From a virus: a stretch of 64,000 bases of DNA. The stretch is from positions 32,001 through 96,000 of IMG/VR virus record IMGVR_UViG_3300050821_003619, one strand, 5' to 3'. The translations under genes were made by a program, and so were the position numbers. The notes below the pieces were generated by a model. It was not told the origin of the DNA. It saw only the letters and a list, made by a program, of their open reading frames with translations, and did no database searches. Below are positions 16,693 to 55,211 of this stretch, piece by piece (the stretch's first letter is position 1; every line of letters starts with the position of its first letter).

Positions 16693-16856
16693 TGCTCAAG
16701 TGGATTCGTAGTTTAGGATTCTGGGGCATGTTCGTTGGGGCAATGGGAGCGCTGAATGCTCTCATTCAGAATGACTGGGGGATCGTAGGGTTAGGTATTG
16801 TTTTCGTTTTGTTGTCCTACGGTTGGTACTGGTTATTCGGCAAGTTCACCACGTAA
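16692..16856 (+). CDS. two-TM membrane protein
   Basis: GGAGG RBS then GTG 16692; two hydrophobic segments. Confidence 0.55.
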   Translation: MLKWIRSLGFWGMFVGAMGALNALIQNDWGIVGLGIVFVLLSYGWYWLFGKFTT

Positions 16857-17250
16857 AGTTACGCACGTATGAGGTAATCGCAAAGCCTATCGGACACGGG
16901 TTCGACTCCCGTCGCCTCCACCAAGCTACTCACGATGAATACCGGCTGACCCCAGCGTCTAGCGCGGAATCACGGCTAGGCCCGAGACGAATGCATCGTT
17001 ATCGGGAAAGTCGAGGATAATTCTCGTCTGGGTGAGTAGCTTAATGGGGGCGTCACGGCTTCGACGGTGGGAACTGAGGGATTTACTGACGTGCCGTTAT
17101 CGTACGCCGTTCGTTATACGGAGTGCAAAAACACAAATGCTAAGACTAACAAGTCTCGCAAGGCCTATGGCATGTTCTTCGGTGGAAACACTGTTGGACA
17201 GCTTTCTGTAGCTGCCTAAAAGGGTGGGAGCCTCACAAGGGCTCCCTTCC
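16857..17250 (+). ncRNA. ssrA: circularly permuted (two-piece) tmRNA
   Basis: acceptor piece with T-arm GGTTCGACTCC ending CGCCTCC-A-CCA (16923); coding piece starts GGGGGCG (17046), giving a G3-U70 pair; helix 2 pairs across the pieces; tag frame 17139..17219 ends VAA-stop; hairpin 17226-17246. Confidence 0.92.
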
Positions 17251-17279
17251 GATATCCTCCCCAACAAACAGGAGAAACC

Positions 17280-17738
17280 ATGAAGAAGCTTTTCGCTGCT
17301 GTACTGATGCTGGCGTCAGCATTTGCTGCTGCCCAAACCACAAACAATTTTACTTTTGGTCCGCGCCCTACCATCACTAACATTGCTCCGATGACTTCGG
17401 TTAACGGTGTTTCAGTCGATCCTGCTACCAATAGCACTGTAGATTTTCAGACTTCGGACTTCAGCACTGCTCCGGGGTTCGCGTTGTATTTCCCTTACAG
17501 CATCGACGGTACCAGTGGTATTCTTGAAGGAGGAACGATTCAGTATGGTGTACGCGTTATTACCGGCGTGAACACTGCTACTCAGTCTGATACGTTCTCT
17601 TTCTTCGGTGGAGAATTTACCGGCACTGTAATTGAAACCTTCACCTTCGCTACGCAGCGTGTGTGCGGTGGTCGTAGTTGCCACAACGTGACGGTGTATA
17701 CCAGCACGGGTGGAACGGGAACGTTGACAAAGAACTAA
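17280..17738 (+). CDS. secreted Thr-rich beta protein
   Basis: AGGAG RBS; signal peptide ending AAA. Confidence 0.65.
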   Translation: MKKLFAAVLMLASAFAAAQTTNNFTFGPRPTITNIAPMTSVNGVSVDPATNSTVDFQTSDFSTAPGFALYFPYSIDGTSGILEGGTIQYGVRVITGVNTATQSDTFSFFGGEFTGTVIETFTFATQRVCGGRSCHNVTVYTSTGGTGTLTKN

Positions 17739-26759: not shown

Positions 26760-28240
26760 ATGATTGATAAGTCCGAGAAGTATAAGCGCGTCTTCGAAGA
26801 CGTGCGAGCCCTCTACTTAGTTGTGCGCGAGGCCCAAGAGGAACGTGGTTTACCGCTACGTAGGGCAGCGATTCGTTCCAATGGGGAAGTAGCCGCTGAA
26901 GCAATTGATTTTCTATGCGATGTAGAACTTAAAGCCAAGCGGGTGCTTCCTCCGGTAGAATTCGATATGTTACAATTAGGTCTGGAAATTACTTCCGGGT
27001 CCAAATCGGCGCTAGGCGAAGTATTCCTAAAATGCAAACTGGGAGTAAGCGGTGATTATAAAAGCCTCTATTTCCACACAAAGCAAGTGATGGATGGACA
27101 GCCGTTAAACAGCATAGAGTTCGGCAAGGTGTCTGATCCTGCACCGTCACTGGAAGACTACGATAGGAGAACTGCGTAATGAGTTATGATTTAAAAGCAA
27201 CCGAGTTAGAATTTCTTCAATATTTCTATAGCGCAGCAGGAGAGTGCTTTGGTCCTGCCGACAATGAAATATACCAAGCAATAAAAGAAAATTTTAAGAA
27301 GTGGAAAGGTAAGGAATTACCTGATGGATACGCAATCGAACAGTGCTGAGGTGCACCTTACAGCAGAGAACGTAGAAAATACCGATTTAGAGCATTTGAA
27401 AGAAGTGCCAGAGAAACCAAAGCAATTAACCAGAGCCGAAATTGGTAAACTTCGTAGAGCATATATTACTGTGGTGCACGGCATCGTAAAAGCCTGTGGG
27501 CACAAGTTTGATCCCAAGGGTCAACCACGAATGTCAAATTGTCCATGGTGCTGGGAAGCGTATTTTATGGTGGCTGTAGATACGGCTGCTATCCACAACG
27601 ATCTAATGAAGGGCGGGAAGAAGGCTCTGGAGGCAAAATTCGGCAAGACGTTCGTTAAGCAGTTTGGACAATTCCTGATTGAGCAGATGACGAAGGAAAT
27701 GCATGAGAACAACAGTAGACCCACAAATAGTGATAGTGGAAGCACAGATCAACATACACACAGCGATCAATGCGATCATGGAGTTCGCGGTGAAGTACCC
27801 AGCGGAGAGACTCAGCCCATTGGAGGCTGAACAACTTGAATACGCTGCAGGACGAATAAGAGAACGTATAAGCAAACACTATGCTGAGGAGAGCAATGGG
27901 AGAGATACTGGAATTCAAACGACCGGAACCGAAGATGCCTTCAAAGAAGCCTATAGACGCATCAATCCCGATAGTCTCCTCGATCACCACGGAGGAGACG
28001 GCAGATAGTCTTCCACGTAAAGTACTAGAAGATGTGCTTGAGTTTGCCGATGACATAGCTGATATTCTGATTATGGTCAGAGGCACGGACGGTACGTTAG
28101 GGTTCGTTACAAGCACAGATGGGTTTGAATCAAGCTTAGCTTTAATTGAATCCGTAAAATTTGGAATGCTCTTAAACAACGCAGTTAATAGCGGGTATAA
28201 CCCCGGCACGGGGGACACTCCTCCGAAAGGATCAGCTTAA
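26760..28240 (+). other. five hypothetical genes (26760..27179, 27179..27349, 27324..27830, 27703..28008, 27896..28240)
   Basis: co-oriented ORFs; 27179..27349 has a phage FGPAD motif and 27324 has CxH...CxxC. Confidence 0.5.
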
Positions 28241-29637
28241 TGCTCAAAAAACTTTTATTGTTCTTGTTCGTCGTAGCTTGTACGGTAACCGGTGTAGCCC
28301 AGATGGGAACAGGCATTTCCCAATTTGCAACGGCTGTCACCGGAGATAACTTCGCACTATGCAGTGTATCCACGGGACGAAACTGCTTTAACCTTAGTGG
28401 TCCTGCATCTCCTGTGACCTTTACCAAGGTTGGGGCAGGTGTGGATAAATTCGCTCTTGCTTTGGATGTGAACGGAAACATCTACAAGTTTAACGAATAC
28501 CCGTCTGGAATCTGGACGGCTCTGCCTAATTTGGGAACTGGTTACAAAGGCATTGCTGTAGGAGACGCTAATCACGTCTACGTTCTAAAGAATGCCCGAG
28601 GAGCCGACTTTTACATCTACCAGCTAAACATGTCTACTGGAGCGCTGACAGCAGTCGCCGGAGGAGCAGGACAGCAGATTTCTGCCAAGGGCTCAACCGT
28701 AACAACCGCCATTAGCAACGGGGACGCTTTTGTAAGTCAAAACGGGGGAGAGTGGACTCTACTCCCGTGTGTCGGATGTTGGCGGTATGTTTCTCCGGCT
28801 TCTATTGGATACAGTGATTTTGTAGGTGCTAAAACCGATGAAAGTCTTTGGTACTACAACGGGAGCACTTTGAAACAAATTACTCCCGGTGGAGGATTGG
28901 CTATAGAAATGTCGCTCGAAGGCGATATCTATGTCATTGGCGGGGATAATCCTGATCACATCTATCACTTGATCCTGTACAACTTCCTTAGCGGGAAAAT
29001 AGCATGGGATGAGCTTGGTGGTGGACCTATGAGTGCCATCGCTACTGGCGGTACGATGTTCAACTGGTTCATTGGACCCCCGGTGAACGGATACACTATC
29101 TATCGCTTCGCAGACCAAGCTATCGGTGGACAAACAACTTTAACCGAAAATTCTGTACAATGCTCTGGTCCCGGCTGTCCGGCGACTCACGTAGGAAAAA
29201 CTTCGGCAGGACTGAACTTGTCTTCTAGTAATACTCCCAGTCCCAATACGGTTCCCGGCTCTCTTACTCAATGGACCGGTAATCCTACCAATCCGTTCAA
29301 CATTAAATCGATTGCATGGGATAGTAACCCTTTCGATTGTTTAGATGATTTTGGTTGCAACATGATTTTCGACAATTCCACAGTGAACTGCAGCGTGCTT
29401 GGAAACATCGACAATCAGACTCTGGCAGATGGTGGACCATTGCCCTTGTGCCCTCCAGACAATCAATGCTGTTCTCTGGCGGACCCCGGCAACAAGAGCC
29501 TGCATCAATGCAGTGCGTTTTGTCCGCAGTATTGTCCTCCTCCACCACCAAAGCCGCCTGTTCCACCAACTCCTCCGAAGCCGAAGCCTACACCGCTTCC
29601 TCTTCCGTATCCTTGTAAGATTCATTGCCGCAAGTAA
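28240..29637 (+). CDS. secreted tectonin/beta-propeller-like protein with Cys- and Pro-rich C-terminus
   Basis: signal peptide; repeated G.IY...W....G...IAVG blades; DGGPLPLC motif; poly-Pro. Confidence 0.65.
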   Translation: MLKKLLLFLFVVACTVTGVAQMGTGISQFATAVTGDNFALCSVSTGRNCFNLSGPASPVTFTKVGAGVDKFALALDVNGNIYKFNEYPSGIWTALPNLGTGYKGIAVGDANHVYVLKNARGADFYIYQLNMSTGALTAVAGGAGQQISAKGSTVTTAISNGDAFVSQNGGEWTLLPCVGCWRYVSPASIGYSDFVGAKTDESLWYYNGSTLKQITPGGGLAIEMSLEGDIYVIGGDNPDHIYHLILYNFLSGKIAWDELGGGPMSAIATGGTMFNWFIGPPVNGYTIYRFADQAIGGQTTLTENSVQCSGPGCPATHVGKTSAGLNLSSSNTPSPNTVPGSLTQWTGNPTNPFNIKSIAWDSNPFDCLDDFGCNMIFDNSTVNCSVLGNIDNQTLADGGPLPLCPPDNQCCSLADPGNKSLHQCSAFCPQYCPPPPPKPPVPPTPPKPKPTPLPLPYPCKIHCRK

Positions 29638-29645
29638 CCTAATGG

Positions 29646-29663
29646 GGAGCCCTACGGGGCTCC
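29646..29663 (+). promoter_or_regulatory. stable C(UACG)G hairpin upstream of recA
   Basis: GGAGCCC-TACG-GGGCTCC with no U-tract. Confidence 0.5.
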
Positions 29664-31310: not shown

Positions 31311-31697
31311 ATGCCGGACAATTCGAACCAGAGTGGGAAGAGCAATACAACTCAGCAGAGCCAATTGACGCACTCAAATACCTTTTCTACCTCATCACAA
31401 GGAAAGCGGAAGAGAAAGCGCAACCGAGGAAAAAGAAATCCGGCACTGGCACCAAAAAAGTTTCAAGCTCCAGTAAAAGAGTACGTAAGCAAGTGCTGCT
31501 CAGTAGCAGCGAAGAAACCGAGAACAGGAACTTCGACTGGAACGCGCTCCGAAGGATCAGGAAAGAAAGTAACTATTGACCCTACGCAAGTGAAAGGTCT
31601 TAGTGGCTGGCGTTGTGGTGCTTGCGGGAAAGCGTGTAAGGTGACGCCTCAGGCTCCAAAGCCAAAGGAGGATGCACCGGTTGAAACACACGTTTAG
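31311..31697 (+). CDS. basic Zn-ribbon protein
   Basis: SKCC...WRCGACGKAC; alternative frame 31307..31579 is also open. Confidence 0.5.
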   Translation: MPDNSNQSGKSNTTQQSQLTHSNTFSTSSQGKRKRKRNRGKRNPALAPKKFQAPVKEYVSKCCSVAAKKPRTGTSTGTRSEGSGKKVTIDPTQVKGLSGWRCGACGKACKVTPQAPKPKEDAPVETHV

Positions 31698-31835
31698 GGG
31701 CTACATACTGTTTGTTTTTGGTTACATTTTCTTAGCCATTGCACATCGGTCCCCCAAACCGGAGTTATTTGCCGTTGCCATGTTTCTCTTTATTGTCGCT
31801 CTGGTTATGTTTGTTTACAGCATAGTGAGGAATCA

Positions 31836-32246
31836 ATGAAAAAGTTTTTATTGCTAACCGTGCTTCTGTTAACGGGACTTACGGAGGCTGCTATACCGAA
31901 GCACGGTTCGAATTCATTGGGGGTAGTGATATCACAAGAGAACCCGTTTACCTACCGTGCAGGATCAGTCATAACCGTATTTGATGTAGAAGAAGGTAAA
32001 GGGTACGTCATACGTATTCAGCCTTACAAAACCTATCTGTCATTCTTTGAAGACATTTTGGTTTGTGGGGAACATATTGATGCTGGTGGGCAGATCAGTG
32101 ACGCCATAGATATGTTCGATCAGAAGCAGAACCCTCTTATGCTGGTGTACCGTATCCGAGCATCACGCACCGTTGAAGGTGTAGGTTGCCACGAGTTGGT
32201 TGGGGTCAACGAGATTAAGGTTAAAAAGGACGACAAATGGAAGTAA
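31836..32246 (+). CDS. secreted hypothetical protein
   Basis: signal peptide ending TEA. Confidence 0.6.
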   Translation: MKKFLLLTVLLLTGLTEAAIPKHGSNSLGVVISQENPFTYRAGSVITVFDVEEGKGYVIRIQPYKTYLSFFEDILVCGEHIDAGGQISDAIDMFDQKQNPLMLVYRIRASRTVEGVGCHELVGVNEIKVKKDDKWK

Positions 32247-32641
32247 AGATTAAAGTACAGAGAAGTAAACCCACAGGCAAAAGTACTCCCGGCACCATGT
32301 CTCTCAATGGAGTTTTCGAATGCTTTACCATGGAGCCTGATCCGGTTACACCAGCTATTGCCGGTCACCCTTCAATTCCTGCCGGTGTATATCCTGTGCA
32401 GCTAACCAAATCCCCGCATTTAGGTTACATTACTCCAGAACTACTGGCTGTTCCGGGGCGCTCAGCTATTCGCATTCATATCGCAAACTACCCTACTGAG
32501 CTTGAAGGATGCACAGCGGTAGGACAATCACAGGAGCAGGATTTTGTTGGGTTCAGCAAGAACGCATTCGAGGCGTTGATGCAAAAACTAACGAGCCTGC
32601 AGGTAACCACAATTACGGCAGAGTATGTGGATGCTGAGTAA
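32237..32641 (+). CDS. DUF5675-type putative peptidoglycan peptidase (endolysin)
   Basis: STxG...CFTxE...IPAGxY...VPGRSxIRIHxAN...EGCxxVG. Confidence 0.75.
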   Translation: MEVKIKVQRSKPTGKSTPGTMSLNGVFECFTMEPDPVTPAIAGHPSIPAGVYPVQLTKSPHLGYITPELLAVPGRSAIRIHIANYPTELEGCTAVGQSQEQDFVGFSKNAFEALMQKLTSLQVTTITAEYVDAE

Positions 32642-32656
32642 AATAAACTACGGAGA

Positions 32657-33043
32657 ATGGCTAGGATGGGCTGGTGCATTTTTGTCTCTAGGGTCATCAA
32701 TTGGATACGCGGTGGTTGGAGACAAACGGCGAGCGATATACTACGCTCTGGCTTTTGGAATCAGCGCTACCGTCCTGTGGAGGTAGGTGGAACATTGAAG
32801 ATAGTCTCAATGAACGATGTTGGAACACGAATGCAGCATCTTGCCGATTTGCATGAGCTTTGGACAGACGGCGTAGGTATACTATCTCAGTCAGCATATA
32901 AGACTGAATTCAACGATAACCTTGTGGAAGAGTTACACATCTGCATCAAGCATCTAGAAAACCACATGACAAAAGATTACATACAGAGCGATTACGCTGC
33001 GGAGATTAACAAGATCGGAACTACACCACCACCAGAAGAATAA
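32657..33043 (+). CDS. hypothetical protein
   Basis: GGAG RBS; co-oriented ORF. Confidence 0.5.
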   Translation: MARMGWCIFVSRVINWIRGGWRQTASDILRSGFWNQRYRPVEVGGTLKIVSMNDVGTRMQHLADLHELWTDGVGILSQSAYKTEFNDNLVEELHICIKHLENHMTKDYIQSDYAAEINKIGTTPPPEE

Positions 33044-35082: not shown

Positions 35083-35140
35083 AAAAAAAATAGCCCCTGT
35101 AGACCTCCGATTTGGAGAAATCTACAGGGGCTTTTCTTAT
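35083..35140. terminator. bidirectional intrinsic terminator at the arm convergence
   Basis: A-tract, AGCCCCTGTAGA/TCTACAGGGGCT stem, T-tract. Confidence 0.8.
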
Positions 35141-35277
35141 TTGGTATGTGCAACGTCTGCTGCTTTGAAAGGACCGCAACCCTTTGTACGACAAAGAGGC
35201 ATTGGATCACTTCCATCAGCAAACATATTCATTGGCACCATAGCCAACATTAACAACAGGATTAAACGTACTTTCAT
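35137..35277 (-). CDS. 46-aa secreted Cys peptide (DGSDPMPLC)
   Basis: GGAGG RBS; MKVRLILLLMLAMVPMNMFA-DGSDPMPLCRTKGCGPFKAADVAHTK. Confidence 0.75.
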   Translation of the reverse strand: MKVRLILLLMLAMVPMNMFADGSDPMPLCRTKGCGPFKAADVAHTK

Positions 35278-35448
35278 TTAGCTTCCTCCACAATGTACTG
35301 GACCAGTTAAACTGCAGCACTTTTTAGAAGGCTCACAAAGAGGCAACGGGCCACCATCTTTGCGAACGTGAGAAGCACTGATTGCAGCCTGAGCGATACC
35401 GCAGCCTAGGACGCCGAACAGCACGTACAACATCAGTTCTTTCTTCAT
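35278..35448 (-). CDS. 56-aa secreted Cys peptide (DGGPLPLC)
   Basis: MKKELMLYVLFGVLGCGIAQA-AISASHVRK-DGGPLPLCEPSKKCCSLTGPVHCGGS; stop abuts the next start. Confidence 0.75.
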   Translation of the reverse strand: MKKELMLYVLFGVLGCGIAQAAISASHVRKDGGPLPLCEPSKKCCSLTGPVHCGGS

Positions 35449-35489: not shown

Positions 35490-36248
35490 CTACAATACAC
35501 CAGAACCGATCAAAATGCCAATAGCTAATACTGGGGGAGCAATTTTAGCCACAGTCTTCGCCCCGGATATAAAGCGTTGCCATCTGGACGGCTTGACCAC
35601 CCGCTTGTAATCAGCAATAGTCTTGTTGGCACCGGTTAAAGTGTCCTTGCATTGATTTAAGTCGTTGGTAAGACTAGAGATATTGCCATTTTGTAGGTCA
35701 ACGATCTGCTTCTCATCCTGAAAATTGGCCGTTTCGGTGTCTAACTGTACCTTTGTAATAGCCACTTTTTGGGCCTGAGGCGTTGTCAGAGCGATAGTTG
35801 AGTCAGGGGAGGCAGTTACTGGCCCAAAGGCTGGGTCAGAGGCGTATAACGCATCTAATGCGTTTTTGACCTGAATAACCGAAGCATTGGGCTGTAAACC
35901 GGTCTGAACTACCGGTGGAGGGGGAGCCGTAGCTCTACGGGCCACCTGAGCTTCAAGGTCGGCTATTTTAGCGTTAGCCTGCTGACGCTCTGCTGAATCC
36001 TGAGCTAGCTGCTGCCTAAAGGCGTCTAGTTGTGCCGTATATGCGGCTTGTTGAGTCTGTGCCTTGTCGAGCAAGGTGTTGAAGCCTTTGAGGGCCATGT
36101 AGCCACCGGCACATGCCATGCCGATGACCAGAACAAGAACTGCGAGCACGCCATAGGACAAAGTTAAAGTTCTATGAGCCAAGCTCGCAAATTCTCCGTG
36201 AAGGTCACTCAGTAGTTGGCTACTGCTTACTTGTGTTGGTTCCGCCAT
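35490..36248 (-). CDS. membrane-anchored coiled-coil protein (spanin-like?)
   Basis: N-terminal TM, coiled coils, C-terminal TM. Confidence 0.5.
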   Translation of the reverse strand: MAEPTQVSSSQLLSDLHGEFASLAHRTLTLSYGVLAVLVLVIGMACAGGYMALKGFNTLLDKAQTQQAAYTAQLDAFRQQLAQDSAERQQANAKIADLEAQVARRATAPPPPVVQTGLQPNASVIQVKNALDALYASDPAFGPVTASPDSTIALTTPQAQKVAITKVQLDTETANFQDEKQIVDLQNGNISSLTNDLNQCKDTLTGANKTIADYKRVVKPSRWQRFISGAKTVAKIAPPVLAIGILIGSGVL

Positions 36249-36942
36249 CTTGAGTCTCCGATGGATTAAAAGTACGTGCTACGTCTAAAGTTTTTTGTGT
36301 GAAATTAAGAATAAACCCTGCGGACTGGTGAACATTACGATGCCAGAACCATAGAAACTTTTCTACTGATTCGGTTCTGTACGTCATCACAGCTACAATC
36401 TGATTTTGAGAGTTGTATACCGCCGAACCACTGTCACCTGCTATTGATAGAATAGTGTAGTAGCCAAGATGGGCATCCTGATCAACATCACTTACTGGGT
36501 CACCCTCTAGAAATTTTCCTTGCTTTAATGTGCAGGGAAAACCTCCTCCACCACAACCGTAAATATACACTGCTTCTCCAGCAGATAAATCTTTGGGGTC
36601 AGCCTGTACAACAGCTAGGTTTCTAAACGGTGCTTCTGCTAGAACAACGATCATATGGTCTCGACCGTCGCCTGTAGCAGCGATTACTTGGTATTTATGA
36701 ACTGAAAAATCAATAGTAATATGATCAGCTATACGGTCATCTTCTGCACAATGGCTGGCTGTGAGAAAAGCAGCCGGTCCAATAGCGGTTGCTGTACAGG
36801 AGTCTACTGGTTCACCGTCTTTATCTAAAAATGAAATAAGATGTGAGGCTCTTTGCTGAGCGGTTACGGGCGTATTCTTGGTACATCCGAGGGAGAAGAG
36901 AAGGGCCACCGACAATAACGCAGTGGCGATGCGCTGGTGCAT
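36220..36942 (-). CDS. trypsin-fold serine protease lipoprotein
   Basis: lipobox SLGC; CTAT, LTASHC, D, GDSGS. Confidence 0.85.
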   Translation of the reverse strand: MHQRIATALLSVALLFSLGCTKNTPVTAQQRASHLISFLDKDGEPVDSCTATAIGPAAFLTASHCAEDDRIADHITIDFSVHKYQVIAATGDGRDHMIVVLAEAPFRNLAVVQADPKDLSAGEAVYIYGCGGGGFPCTLKQGKFLEGDPVSDVDQDAHLGYYTILSIAGDSGSAVYNSQNQIVAVMTYRTESVEKFLWFWHRNVHQSAGFILNFTQKTLDVARTFNPSETQDGGTNTSKQ

Positions 36943-39925: not shown

Positions 39926-40126
39926 CTAATTCTTAGGCGCAGGGCAGGTTGTACCTGAGTACGGCTGTCCATCATAGGTATATGTGCAGTGCTTTACTCG
40001 CATTTCATATCCTATAACGGCACCTGCTGCCGCACCTACCACTAAACCGGTAACTACCGGGTGGCGTCTGATTGTCGCGCATCCTGTCAAGGAGAGACAA
40101 AGGATGGCTACTAGTATCTTTTTCAT
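39926..40126 (-). CDS. small glycine-zipper lipoprotein
   Basis: lipobox LTGC; GxxxGxxxGxxxG. Confidence 0.65.
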   Translation of the reverse strand: MKKILVAILCLSLTGCATIRRHPVVTGLVVGAAAGAVIGYEMRVKHCTYTYDGQPYSGTTCPAPKN

Positions 40127-52550: not shown

Positions 52551-55211
52551 TTACTTAGTTGTTAATGCGTGATACTGTCCGTTTAAAGCGTAACCCTTTA
52601 CGTTGCCTTTATCATCTTTATAGATGTGCGTTGCCCCGGCTGGAACTCCAGCGGGTACATTAGGTGGAGAATTAGGAGTTGCCTTTTTAGGCGTAACCGT
52701 TGTGCCACCCTTAGGGTTATTCTTTACTTCGGTGTTTTGTGCGTGCGTGCCAAAGTTCTTATCGATAGATTGGGTAGAAGTCTTCCAAACATCGTTTTGT
52801 TCTTTGATCATTTGATCCAGCAATCCACCAACTTCCTGCTTATAACCATCAGGCAATTGACCAGCGGAAAGTTTATCAGCATGCGCTGCTGCCCAACGAT
52901 ACATTGATCCTTGTGCAGGAGACAAAGCCTGAATTTCAATCGGGCTAAGTCTTCTTACTTTACCTTCTGTACTGATCATACCTAATGTGGTAAGCATAGG
53001 AATTACGTTGGCAGCAACGGTACTATCGTCTGCTGTTGCCAGAATATTCTTAATAGACTGGAACTGTGCGATAGCATTATTGTGCTCAGCATCAGCTTTT
53101 TGCTGAAGTTCGGCACCTTTTAGGCCGTACTCGCTGGCTTTAGCACTGTTCTGTACCAGCAATGCACGCTGTGTAGCATAGCCATTCTGAATTGCTTCTT
53201 TGGTTTTCCAAACAGGCAATCCACCTTGAGCTTTAGAAGCAACCTTCTTGCTCTCGTAATCCTGCATAGCCTTATCGTACTGTGTAGGATCATCTGGATC
53301 GAGACCCATGGTTTTAGCATGGTCAATAATTTCTCTACGTCTATCCGTAAGCTTCTGACCCTGTTGCGCCTGTTTTTGCATAAAGGCCAAGTCAGCCTCT
53401 GCTTGAGCACGCTCAGGTGAACCTTCTGGTAAGCTAAGAACCTTCTTAGTTTGAGCGTCGATTTGCTCAGGAAGCTTCTCGCGCTTTCCTCCAAGCTTAG
53501 CGTTTTCCAAATCTTGATTCTGTTTCTGGTATTCCGCTAAGTTTTGTTTTGCAGATTCATACTCTGGTGTACCCGGAGCGCTATGGTTCATACGGAAGGT
53601 CTCAAAGGCGATACCTTGCTTTGGGTCCTTAGGACGCCCAGCCATTGTAGCCTGAGCATTTTTCAAGCTAGTCTCAGCTTCTGATGCCTTTCCTGCTAAG
53701 CCTTGGGTGACTTGTTGTTGTCCACCCGCCTCTTGAGCATTCAAGTTCTCACGGGTGCCGGGAATACGTTCAGTAATCGCGGGTCCAAGAACTACATCTG
53801 AAGCAATTTCTCCAGCTTGAGCTAGCCCATGACCTAGCTTACCGAAAAAACCTTCGTGATTGCCGGGTTGTCCCCACGGATGCGCTTTATTAAGGTCAGC
53901 CAAGGCCATCTTAGCTTCACCGTACGCAACGTGATCGAACTTACCGTTATTAAACTTTCCTTCAGCCGCGTCAACCATTTTCTGTTTTAACGCTGCTCTT
54001 TCACCTTCTAGCTTTTCACGCTCATTAGGTAGAGGTTGTGCCGAAGCAGTTGTGGCCATAGAGTTATGCTCTGGTTGAACTGGTTGTGCAGCGGCATTTG
54101 GGTCCTGTGGATTAGGCTGATCCTGTGGTTGTCCCATAGGAGCCATTTTTGGTGCAACAGGAGGAACTTTATTGCTTGCCGCACTCATCATAGCTGGCTG
54201 TTGTTCAGCAGATGCCTGTGTAGGTTCTGGTGAAACTCCACCTTTGCCGTCTGGCTGCGCTACGTCACCGTGCGCTCCTGCAGTAAACTGCTCAGTCGAA
54301 GGGTGCTCTGTGTCCATAGTAGGACGTACTGGAGGATTAGGCTGTTGTAGAATTGGTCCACCAAAATCTGCCGGTGCACCATGCTCAGTTTCATACTGTG
54401 CATTCTGTTCTGGAGTTAACACTCTCTCGCCTTCTTCCAATACCGCTAGCTGATGGTGTCCATCTTCTGGGTCATTCTTTACTGGCCCACCGTCATCGTA
54501 AATTGGAGCCATACGGGGCGAACCCAAAGGCTTCAAGTAAGATGACACATCAATTCTCTTTTCACCGGGCTTATCACCATACTTAGCACTAGGATTAATC
54601 TTGTCAGATTCCGTGGATTCGTGGTGTACAGCCGTTTCTTGTTTAGGAGCAGTAGCGTTCTCGTACTCCTGAATGTTCTGATTCTTAGCCGCAATTCCAG
54701 CAGCGCTATCGTCATCTGGAACAACTACTTTTGATCCTACCTTACTAACCACTCCACCATCATCCATAATAGGTGCAGTATTAGATAGACCAGACACTGG
54801 ATACATACGTGTCTGTGCTCCTTGACCGGGCATAGAATTAGGATCAATATCCCCTCCATCCTGCTGGGTAACTGGCTGCTTAGATGCAGGAGCCAAAGGA
54901 GTAGACATCATAGATGCTTCTAATGCTGAATCCGGTCTTTGCAGAGTAAGGTTAGACGTATCAGGTACGCCACCATCATCATACACTGGCAAACTCTTCA
55001 TCTGAGTTGGTGCCAAATGAATATGAATCTGAGGCATACCCGATTCTTGTTCTTGTGGTGCTACATTGAACTTATTAGCACCTGTTTGAGTCATCTGGGT
55101 TGGTTCATCTTCAGATGGCTGAACTAAGTAACGTGGCGATGGCTGTTGAGGCTTCTTCTGCTCCTCTTCGGAGTCATCTTGGCCTATACTACGTAATTTT
55201 GGTACTGCCAT
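52551..55211 (-). CDS. ejection (DNA transfer) protein
   Basis: position between the gp7-like and the giant protein; helical C-terminus; repeated DDGG. Confidence 0.6.
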   Translation of the reverse strand: MAVPKLRSIGQDDSEEEQKKPQQPSPRYLVQPSEDEPTQMTQTGANKFNVAPQEQESGMPQIHIHLAPTQMKSLPVYDDGGVPDTSNLTLQRPDSALEASMMSTPLAPASKQPVTQQDGGDIDPNSMPGQGAQTRMYPVSGLSNTAPIMDDGGVVSKVGSKVVVPDDDSAAGIAAKNQNIQEYENATAPKQETAVHHESTESDKINPSAKYGDKPGEKRIDVSSYLKPLGSPRMAPIYDDGGPVKNDPEDGHHQLAVLEEGERVLTPEQNAQYETEHGAPADFGGPILQQPNPPVRPTMDTEHPSTEQFTAGAHGDVAQPDGKGGVSPEPTQASAEQQPAMMSAASNKVPPVAPKMAPMGQPQDQPNPQDPNAAAQPVQPEHNSMATTASAQPLPNEREKLEGERAALKQKMVDAAEGKFNNGKFDHVAYGEAKMALADLNKAHPWGQPGNHEGFFGKLGHGLAQAGEIASDVVLGPAITERIPGTRENLNAQEAGGQQQVTQGLAGKASEAETSLKNAQATMAGRPKDPKQGIAFETFRMNHSAPGTPEYESAKQNLAEYQKQNQDLENAKLGGKREKLPEQIDAQTKKVLSLPEGSPERAQAEADLAFMQKQAQQGQKLTDRRREIIDHAKTMGLDPDDPTQYDKAMQDYESKKVASKAQGGLPVWKTKEAIQNGYATQRALLVQNSAKASEYGLKGAELQQKADAEHNNAIAQFQSIKNILATADDSTVAANVIPMLTTLGMISTEGKVRRLSPIEIQALSPAQGSMYRWAAAHADKLSAGQLPDGYKQEVGGLLDQMIKEQNDVWKTSTQSIDKNFGTHAQNTEVKNNPKGGTTVTPKKATPNSPPNVPAGVPAGATHIYKDDKGNVKGYALNGQYHALTTK

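Follow-up and report, generated by a model that had tools for sequence, protein, structure and literature searches.

The locus examined here raised the question of why a peptide motif near the C-terminus of a large secreted phage protein should recur in a very small protein encoded on the other strand, and whether the two products are functionally connected. The virus record (109,250 bp, with direct terminal repeats) is estimated to be complete, and an exact terminal repeat of 25 bp was seen at its ends. The window, i.e., the whole stretch of 64,000 nucleotides that was analysed, corresponds to bases 32001-96000 of this record.

The motif was located exactly at the predicted position (29428..29478, plus strand), where it encodes residues 397-413 of a 465-aa ORF (28240..29637). 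Thirteen of the 17 residues are identical to residues 31-47 of a 56-aa ORF on the minus strand (35278..35448). The original prediction also stated that the codons differ and that conservation is at the protein level, and this was borne out: 30 of 51 bases are the same, only four of the 13 conserved residues share a codon, and 12 of the 21 base differences fall at third positions. BLASTP of the two ORFs against each other gave an E value of 3e-9, and a six-frame search of the whole 109-kb genome recovered the 56-aa ORF at E 3.1e-5. When 21 random substitutions were placed on 51 bases, at least 13 residues were kept in none of 100,000 trials (maximum, 11). This outcome argues that both stretches are translated and under purifying selection; taken together with the alignments, the shared copies are homologous.

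A six-frame scan of the genome with a regular expression found the motif in the 465-aa and 56-aa ORFs only, plus a diverged copy (DG-x2-P-x-P-L-C) in the adjoining 46-aa ORF. Scans of IMG/VR and the JGI metagenomes with a degenerate DNA pattern for the module gave zero matches, so that it is not a common low-complexity Cys/Pro module. Judged by these scans, it is all but confined to this phage lineage.

Gapped alignment carried the similarity beyond the 17 residues to a fourth conserved Cys. According to this alignment the 17-residue match is not a linear motif; it is the core of a Cys/Pro-rich module of 27-36 residues with four to six Cys, which follows the pattern D-G-G-P-L-P-[LM]-C-x-P-x3-C-C and then has one to three more Cys. 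The 56-aa peptide could be aligned with P0002, a homologue of the large protein encoded on a 6.7-kb Logan contig, from D-G-G up to the final Cys that precedes the prolines (E 2e-8). In a four-way alignment of the phage protein's tail, P0002 and the two micro-proteins the residues D, G, P, P, C, C and P do not vary. Similarity of the 46-aa copy is weak (E 0.02), and the modules of the 465-aa, 56-aa and 46-aa products have six, four and two Cys, respectively. One phage genome thus carries three paralogous copies, and what the lectin-fold protein and the two micro-proteins have in common is, on the evidence of the alignments, an undescribed mini-module. The features of the locus are listed in the table.

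Table. Coordinates (window numbering) of the features of the large protein, the two micro-proteins and their neighbours.
Feature	Coordinates	Strand	Basis or remarks
Gene for 465-aa exported tectonin-fold protein	28240..29637	+	ORF, sequence, AF2 model (mean pLDDT 79.5), one close homologue (P0002)
Signal peptide, residues 1-20	28240..28299	+	Read by eye; predicted signal-peptidase-I (SPI) site V-A↓Q-M
Six-bladed tectonin-type beta-propeller, residues ~21-292	28300..29115	+	Profile, Foldseek, Pfam on homologues, model strands
Second beta-rich domain with conserved Cys, residues ~293-396	29116..29427	+	AF2 model, alignments; common to distant homologues
Cys/Pro module with six Cys, residues 397-432	29428..29535	+	56% identical to P0002; 29428..29478 is the N-terminal core
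Polyproline/Lys spacer, residues 433-458	29536..29613	+	Sequence; 65% identical to P0002
C-x2-H-C-R-K end, residues 459-465	29614..29634	+	5/7 residues identical in P0002
Strong intrinsic terminator, 17-bp stem and T run	35092..35132	-	Directly after the 46-aa ORF; closes the minus arm at the convergence point
46-aa exported micro-protein (predicted)	35137..35277	-	Diverged module copy at 35176..35217
56-aa exported micro-protein (predicted)	35278..35448	-	Signal peptide, short pro-region ending R-K, module at 35290..35358
252-aa membrane protein: N-terminal TM, coiled coil, C-terminal tail-anchor TM	35490..36248	-	Just upstream of the micro-ORFs
Exported trypsin-like serine protease, probable lipobox S-L-G-C	36220..36942	-	Pfam Trypsin_2, E 2.1e-9

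The start of the 465-aa ORF shares one base with the stop of the ORF before it, and the sequence AAAGGA lies ~10 nt upstream. The product had been described as secreted and as built of tectonin-like blades, and both features were recovered. Secretion is predicted from the signal peptide, cleavage of which at the SPI site would leave an N-terminal Gln on the mature protein. An [AG]↓Q cut, usually followed by M, is common to P0002 and nearly all members of the family, which favours SPI cleavage over lipidation at the variable Cys of the hydrophobic core. As for the blades, the family profile matched PDB entry 5fsb (E 1.5e-13), and Foldseek retrieved 5fsc_B with the AF2 model (E 4.7e-11, TM 0.81 on target, rmsd 3.2). 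Over 5fsc/5fsb and carp fishelectin, TM scores on target ranged from 0.76 to 0.81. In the model, pLDDT exceeds 90 through most of residues 60-300, and 24 strands form six groups. The 465-aa protein alone gave no Pfam match at E 0.1 and no PHROG match; the Pfam family Tectonin (PF19193) was matched by eight of 25 homologues (best E 3.7e-8).

Tectonin 2 of Laccaria bicolor (5fsb/5fsc, PF19193) and the fish-egg lectins (4ruq) have the same six-bladed, four-stranded propeller, and the repeat signature ending in I-Y-[RH] can be recognised. Unlike these lectins, the 465-aa protein is encoded by a phage, starts with a Sec signal peptide and continues beyond the propeller with a further beta domain and the Cys/Pro tail. 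The inter-blade sugar site of Tectonin 2 is formed by Ser200, Asn216, Tyr222 and Trp3 (PMC6359319). In the HMM alignment the Tyr of this site is kept, and the Asn of W-G-V-N faces the Gly of the family's Y-V-I-G (aligned blades, inspected by eye). Given the Gly opposite this Asn in the family consensus, a role of the propeller as a sugar binder is unproven. A literature search for phage tectonins or lectins returned nothing relevant.

The stalk of prolines which had been noticed behind the motif, ending in a pair of Cys, was evident from the sequence. Between the 465-aa protein and P0002 the tail (residues 397-465) is 61% identical and the body 42%, and so the tail is the most constrained part of the large protein. 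In the AF2 model of the whole protein, residues 396-465 have pLDDT values below 50 and the tail is not docked on the propeller. No fold was obtained when a tail construct of 73 residues was modelled alone from a four-row alignment (mean pLDDT 47.5), and look-alikes of the tail in the ESM Atlas yielded nothing usable. When the mature 56-aa peptide was modelled in complex with the propeller (residues 23-395; 25-row alignment), the prediction scored 0.00, which is uninformative either way.

An exhaustive HMMER search of 1.84 billion representatives identified 33 homologous proteins. P0002 is the only close one (43-47% identical), and ~30 others are distant (24-30%; alignment A1). P0002 keeps the whole tail, i.e., module, polyproline/Lys spacer and C-x2-HCRK end. 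In nearly all distant homologues the match breaks off immediately ahead of the motif (query residues 392-400), and P0004-P0034 are devoid of the DGGPLP[LM]C module. The assumption that the motif accompanies the propeller in its homologues therefore held for one close relative and failed for the ~30 distant ones, which makes the motif an add-on of one lineage and not a feature of the family. P0004-P0034 resemble the 465-aa protein in the [AG]↓Q cut, the propeller, the second domain and the conserved Cys, and differ from it in C-terminal modules that are unrelated to the phage tail; these are either Cys-rich domains ending in C-[TS]-x-N-P or ends containing HExxH. Such differences indicate that the C-terminus of the carrier family is a slot for exchangeable modules. 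The set thereby defines an unnamed family of secreted tectonin-propeller proteins with interchangeable C-terminal modules. No relatives of the 465-aa protein were found by tblastn in 50,697 phage records or by direct searches of IMG/VR and the JGI metagenomes, and megablast of 20 kb against phage records gave no match.

In both micro-proteins, which are encoded in tandem at the end of the opposite arm, 6 kb from the motif of the large protein, the module makes up nearly the whole mature part. All three products have an n-region with K/R, a hydrophobic core and a small-x-small cleavage site, and they are predicted to be exported; the number of Cys after the cleavage site is even in both micro-proteins. 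In the 56-aa ORF the sequence V-L-G-C fits a relaxed lipobox, and an SPI site four residues later (I-A↓Q), which mirrors that of the propeller protein, fits equally. Among 5.8 billion proteins, those of about the same length or longer included no homologue of this ORF other than itself. In the 46-aa ORF the module copy starts right after the predicted signal-peptide cut F-A↓D-G, and GGAGG is located 8 nt before the ATG. Shine-Dalgarno (SD)-like sequences ahead of the ORFs and the strong terminator behind the 46-aa ORF indicate that these are real genes. Thus, ORFs of 46-56 aa, under the usual annotation cut-off, are real and selected in this phage.

Genes on the plus strand extend to ~35080 and those on the minus strand start at 35137. 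A helicase, a primase/helicase, RecA and a dNMP phosphatase are encoded around the finding, and a GH108 + PG_binding_3 endolysin with a signal peptide forms the end of the plus arm. On the minus strand near the finding are genes for an exonuclease, a dNMP kinase, the trypsin-like protease and the 252-aa membrane coiled-coil protein, in addition to the two micro-ORFs; a cupin-like protein is also among the neighbours. The C-terminal TM segment of the 252-aa protein is flanked by a K/R-rich, strongly basic stretch. The original prediction had proposed that copies in both arms give early and late versions of a signal. This idea found no support because the endolysin lies in the plus arm, and the exonuclease and dNMP kinase near the end of the minus arm; the arms are not cleanly early and late. 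It may be added that nothing ties the 252-aa protein to the module, and that the same applies to the protease.

Related loci (17 in IMG/VR, 49-75% identity) were reached via the primase/helicase; single-protein patterns for the 252-aa protein and the protease retrieved no relatives in IMG/VR. Neither a relative of the 465-aa protein nor a DGGPLPLC-type peptide was present in five related phage records, three of which are 93-98% complete. In relatives recA directly follows the conserved upstream genes, and in the closest one a 157-aa HNH-like ORF occupies the slot, which is bounded there by recA and the homologue of the upstream 119-aa ORF; the 465-aa gene is thus accessory cargo in a variable slot. 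The 252-aa-type membrane protein has a homologue in relative G003 and counterparts of analogous architecture in G002, G004 and G005. Homologues of the trypsin-like protease are encoded in G003 and G004, both of which are devoid of module peptides. Tail and peptides are hence present together in this phage and absent together from its relatives, a pattern compatible with a functional link and provided by a single positive genome.

The explanation that we tentatively prefer is that the three products are accessory proteins destined for export and have in common one module that is locked by disulfides. All three would enter the envelope of a diderm host, and the oxidising conditions there would let the disulfides form. 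The module would then dock on one target in the envelope or work on it as an effector. The large protein may present it on a rigid polyproline spacer from a head of the glycan-recognition type, and the micro-proteins would supply the same element in free form, the 56-aa one possibly being lipid-anchored. The likeliest functional class would be accessory envelope remodelling by the phage or superinfection exclusion.

A simpler account is that the copies are paralogous leftovers: a piece of the tail, or a micro-ORF, would have been copied once in the lineage, and each copy would have been kept for an unrelated role of its own, e.g., as a structural tail cap. Saturated synonymous sites imply that the duplication is old, the two loci are separate variable slots, and no shared partner is known, all of which suits this account. 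However, the same residues are strongly conserved in three contexts, the tail is the best conserved part of the large protein, and every copy is predicted to be exported to the same compartment, so that we consider it unlikely, if a serious contender. Quite unlikely is a processed peptide signal, in which peptides of ~26 residues starting at D-G would be freed by signal peptidase or the trypsin-like protease to serve as a diffusible cue, the propeller tail being a third precursor, a tethered ligand or a decoy. The position of D-G directly after the predicted cut in the 46-aa ORF and after R-K in the 56-aa ORF would fit such processing, and the exported protease is encoded two genes upstream. 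Moreover, the same arm of G002 ends in a 48-aa ORF, its last gene, whose predicted mature part starts with D-G-G and has six Cys. This peptide has no echo in any larger G002 protein, though, and the protease homologues of G003 and G004 come without such peptides. The neighbourhood has no evident gene for a receptor or regulator, the sequences do not resemble arbitrium-type systems, a diderm host would hold the peptides in the periplasm until lysis, and the undocked tail of the AF2 model does not speak for a tethered ligand. A bolder reading, which we regard as improbable, is that the phage directs a single type of disulfide-locked peptide at one target in the envelope or on the host surface in two ways: tethered via a polyproline rod to a glycan-recognising propeller, and as two free micro-peptides encoded in the other arm. 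The forms would compete or cooperate, as a built-in agonist and antagonist or as a timing device. If true, phages would have a type of peptide effector or signal system that has not been described so far. In a sub-variant of this reading, by analogy with Braun's lipoprotein, the conserved C-terminal R-K end could be cross-linked to peptidoglycan.

Two further alternatives start from the neighbouring genes. The 56-aa product might be an o-spanin-like lipoprotein of the outer membrane and cooperate in lysis with the 252-aa protein encoded upstream, with the propeller tail mimicking the 56-aa product. Its ORF begins 41 nt downstream of that for the membrane coiled-coil protein and ~1.4 kb from the GH108 endolysin, L-G-C could serve as a lipobox, and the mature product of ~40 residues resembles Rz1-type o-spanins in being rich in Pro and Cys. 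In the Rz/Rz1 spanins of lambda, too, the gene for a membrane coiled-coil protein lies close to that for the endolysin and is followed by one for a short exported product rich in Pro and Cys, but the features that define spanins either do not hold here or are not conserved in relatives. Matches of the 252-aa protein to PHROG spanins were non-significant (E 0.05-0.1), its second, C-terminal TM segment with the basic flank is unlike i-spanins, and G002-G005 keep a protein of this type but encode no small lipoprotein behind or inside its gene. On these three points the spanin reading breaks down, the I-A↓Q site that mirrors the one of the propeller protein also tells against it, and we take it to be very improbable. 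The least probable alternative in our view is that the disulfide loops are canonical inhibitors or substrate mimics of a protease, be it the co-encoded trypsin-like enzyme or one of the host periplasm. The first Cys-Cys loops of the micro-proteins are indeed basic (R-T-K and S-K-K), and the micro-ORFs lie in one apparent operon with the exported protease. Yet basic residues are missing from the loop of the propeller tail, none of the Pfam inhibitor families shows similarity, and relatives have the protease without the peptides.

Among known systems, Llp of T5 and Cor of phi80 and N15 are small, exported, Cys-containing superinfection-exclusion proteins from variable regions that have their target in the envelope. 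The phage micro-proteins likewise are small, contain Cys, lie in variable regions and are predicted to be exported, but they have no sequence similarity to Llp or Cor, and lipidation of the 56-aa product is uncertain. We know of no system of this type that repeats its module on a large lectin-type protein. The arbitrium pair AimP/AimR offers another comparison in that a small ORF with a signal peptide has a C-terminal part that may be releasable; here, the mature peptide is far longer and rich in Cys, a diderm host is probable and there is no homology. No AimR-type TPR/HTH receptor was detected among the neighbours of the micro-ORFs by Pfam or PHROGs. Whether superinfection is excluded, whether receptors are masked and what the host surface is like often depends on phage 'moron' genes for exported proteins, and to our knowledge very few of these genes are understood outside model phages. 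The shared module provides a ready hypothesis of one target, together with small reagents that can be synthesised.

Some observations concern the host and the history of the 465-aa gene. A diderm envelope of the host is inferred from the GH108-type endolysin and the lipobox-bearing phage proteins. A Bacteroidota host was considered on account of the N-terminal Gln left by the signal-peptide cuts; SD-like motifs upstream of 68% of the ORFs of at least 150 aa (background, 18%) argue against this assignment and make it unlikely. RecA is ~50% identical to sequences from many phyla and thus uninformative on the host, and a search for the distant homologues P0004 and P0016 in genome contigs gave no match. 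Finally, recent horizontal transfer of the 465-aa gene was considered; its GC and GC3 values are typical of the arm, which argues against a recent acquisition, and mild deviations are confined to the strand skews (z ~-1.7 to -1.9).

The 252-aa protein encoded next to the two G000 micro-proteins has two transmembrane segments, one at the N-terminus and the other, a tail anchor with a K/R-rich flank, at the C-terminus. Between them lies a long coiled coil and then a proline linker. As all four related phages examined (G002-G005) possess a counterpart, either a homologue (G003) or a look-alike of 246-250 aa, the protein is the product of a core gene. A 48-aa ORF of phage G002, preceded by AAGAGGAA, encodes a signal peptide and a 24-residue mature part that begins with D-G-G and contains six Cys. 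The location and layout of this ORF resemble those of the G000 micro-proteins, yet there is hardly any likeness at sequence level.

Features of the phage genome (window coordinates) and of related phages.
Feature	Position	Strand	Remark
Permuted (two-piece) tmRNA gene	16831-17310	+	ARAGORN call
Small exported Cys-rich ORF, 79 aa	19498-19737	+	About 9 Cys after signal peptide
Weak similarity pair	28303-28404 vs 35299-35409	+ vs -	Besides shared module
GC-rich hairpin, 7 bp	29646-29663	+	Directly 3' of 465-aa gene stop codon
55-aa ORF	31672-31839	+	Two hydrophobic segments; upstream of endolysin
53-aa ORF	32625-32786	+	Two hydrophobic segments; upstream of endolysin
252-aa protein	35490-36248	-	Upstream neighbour of micro-ORFs
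66-aa ORF	39926-40126	-	Lipobox L-T-G-C
48-aa ORF	L106:4983-5129 = G002:C1:16982-17128	-	Last gene of corresponding arm in related phage G002
HNH-like ORF, 157 aa	L083:14356-14829	+	Closest relative

Residues 14-50 of the 56-aa micro-protein resemble residues 22-55 of the 465-aa tectonin-fold protein, i.e. its mature N-terminus (E 0.008), and the same N-terminal similarity was seen with the only close homologue of the latter, P0002 (E 0.036). It could be due to chance or represent the remnant of an older relationship. In some distant metagenomic homologues (P0009, P0017, P0029 and P0033) the slot held by the Cys/Pro tail in the phage protein is taken by a C-terminal domain with the motif H-E-E-G-H-D-N-F, which by its sequence is of the metalloprotease-like HExxH type.

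The exact position of the tectonin-fold gene is occupied in the closest relative by the HNH-like ORF, which has recA on one side and the 119-aa ORF homologue on the other. The hairpin located ahead of recA in G000 has no T run and may function as a transcript-stabilising or attenuating element.

The window contains further small ORFs. The 79-aa ORF has a similarly designed counterpart in the closest relative (G001 53572..53808). Downstream of its textbook lipobox, the 66-aa ORF, probably a small outer-membrane lipoprotein, has a hydrophobic stretch resembling a Gly zipper as well as two Cys. The 55-aa and 53-aa ORFs are holin-like candidates, and the second of this pair is kept in relatives. 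Finally, the tag predicted by ARAGORN for the tmRNA comprises 26 residues and ends with V-A-A.
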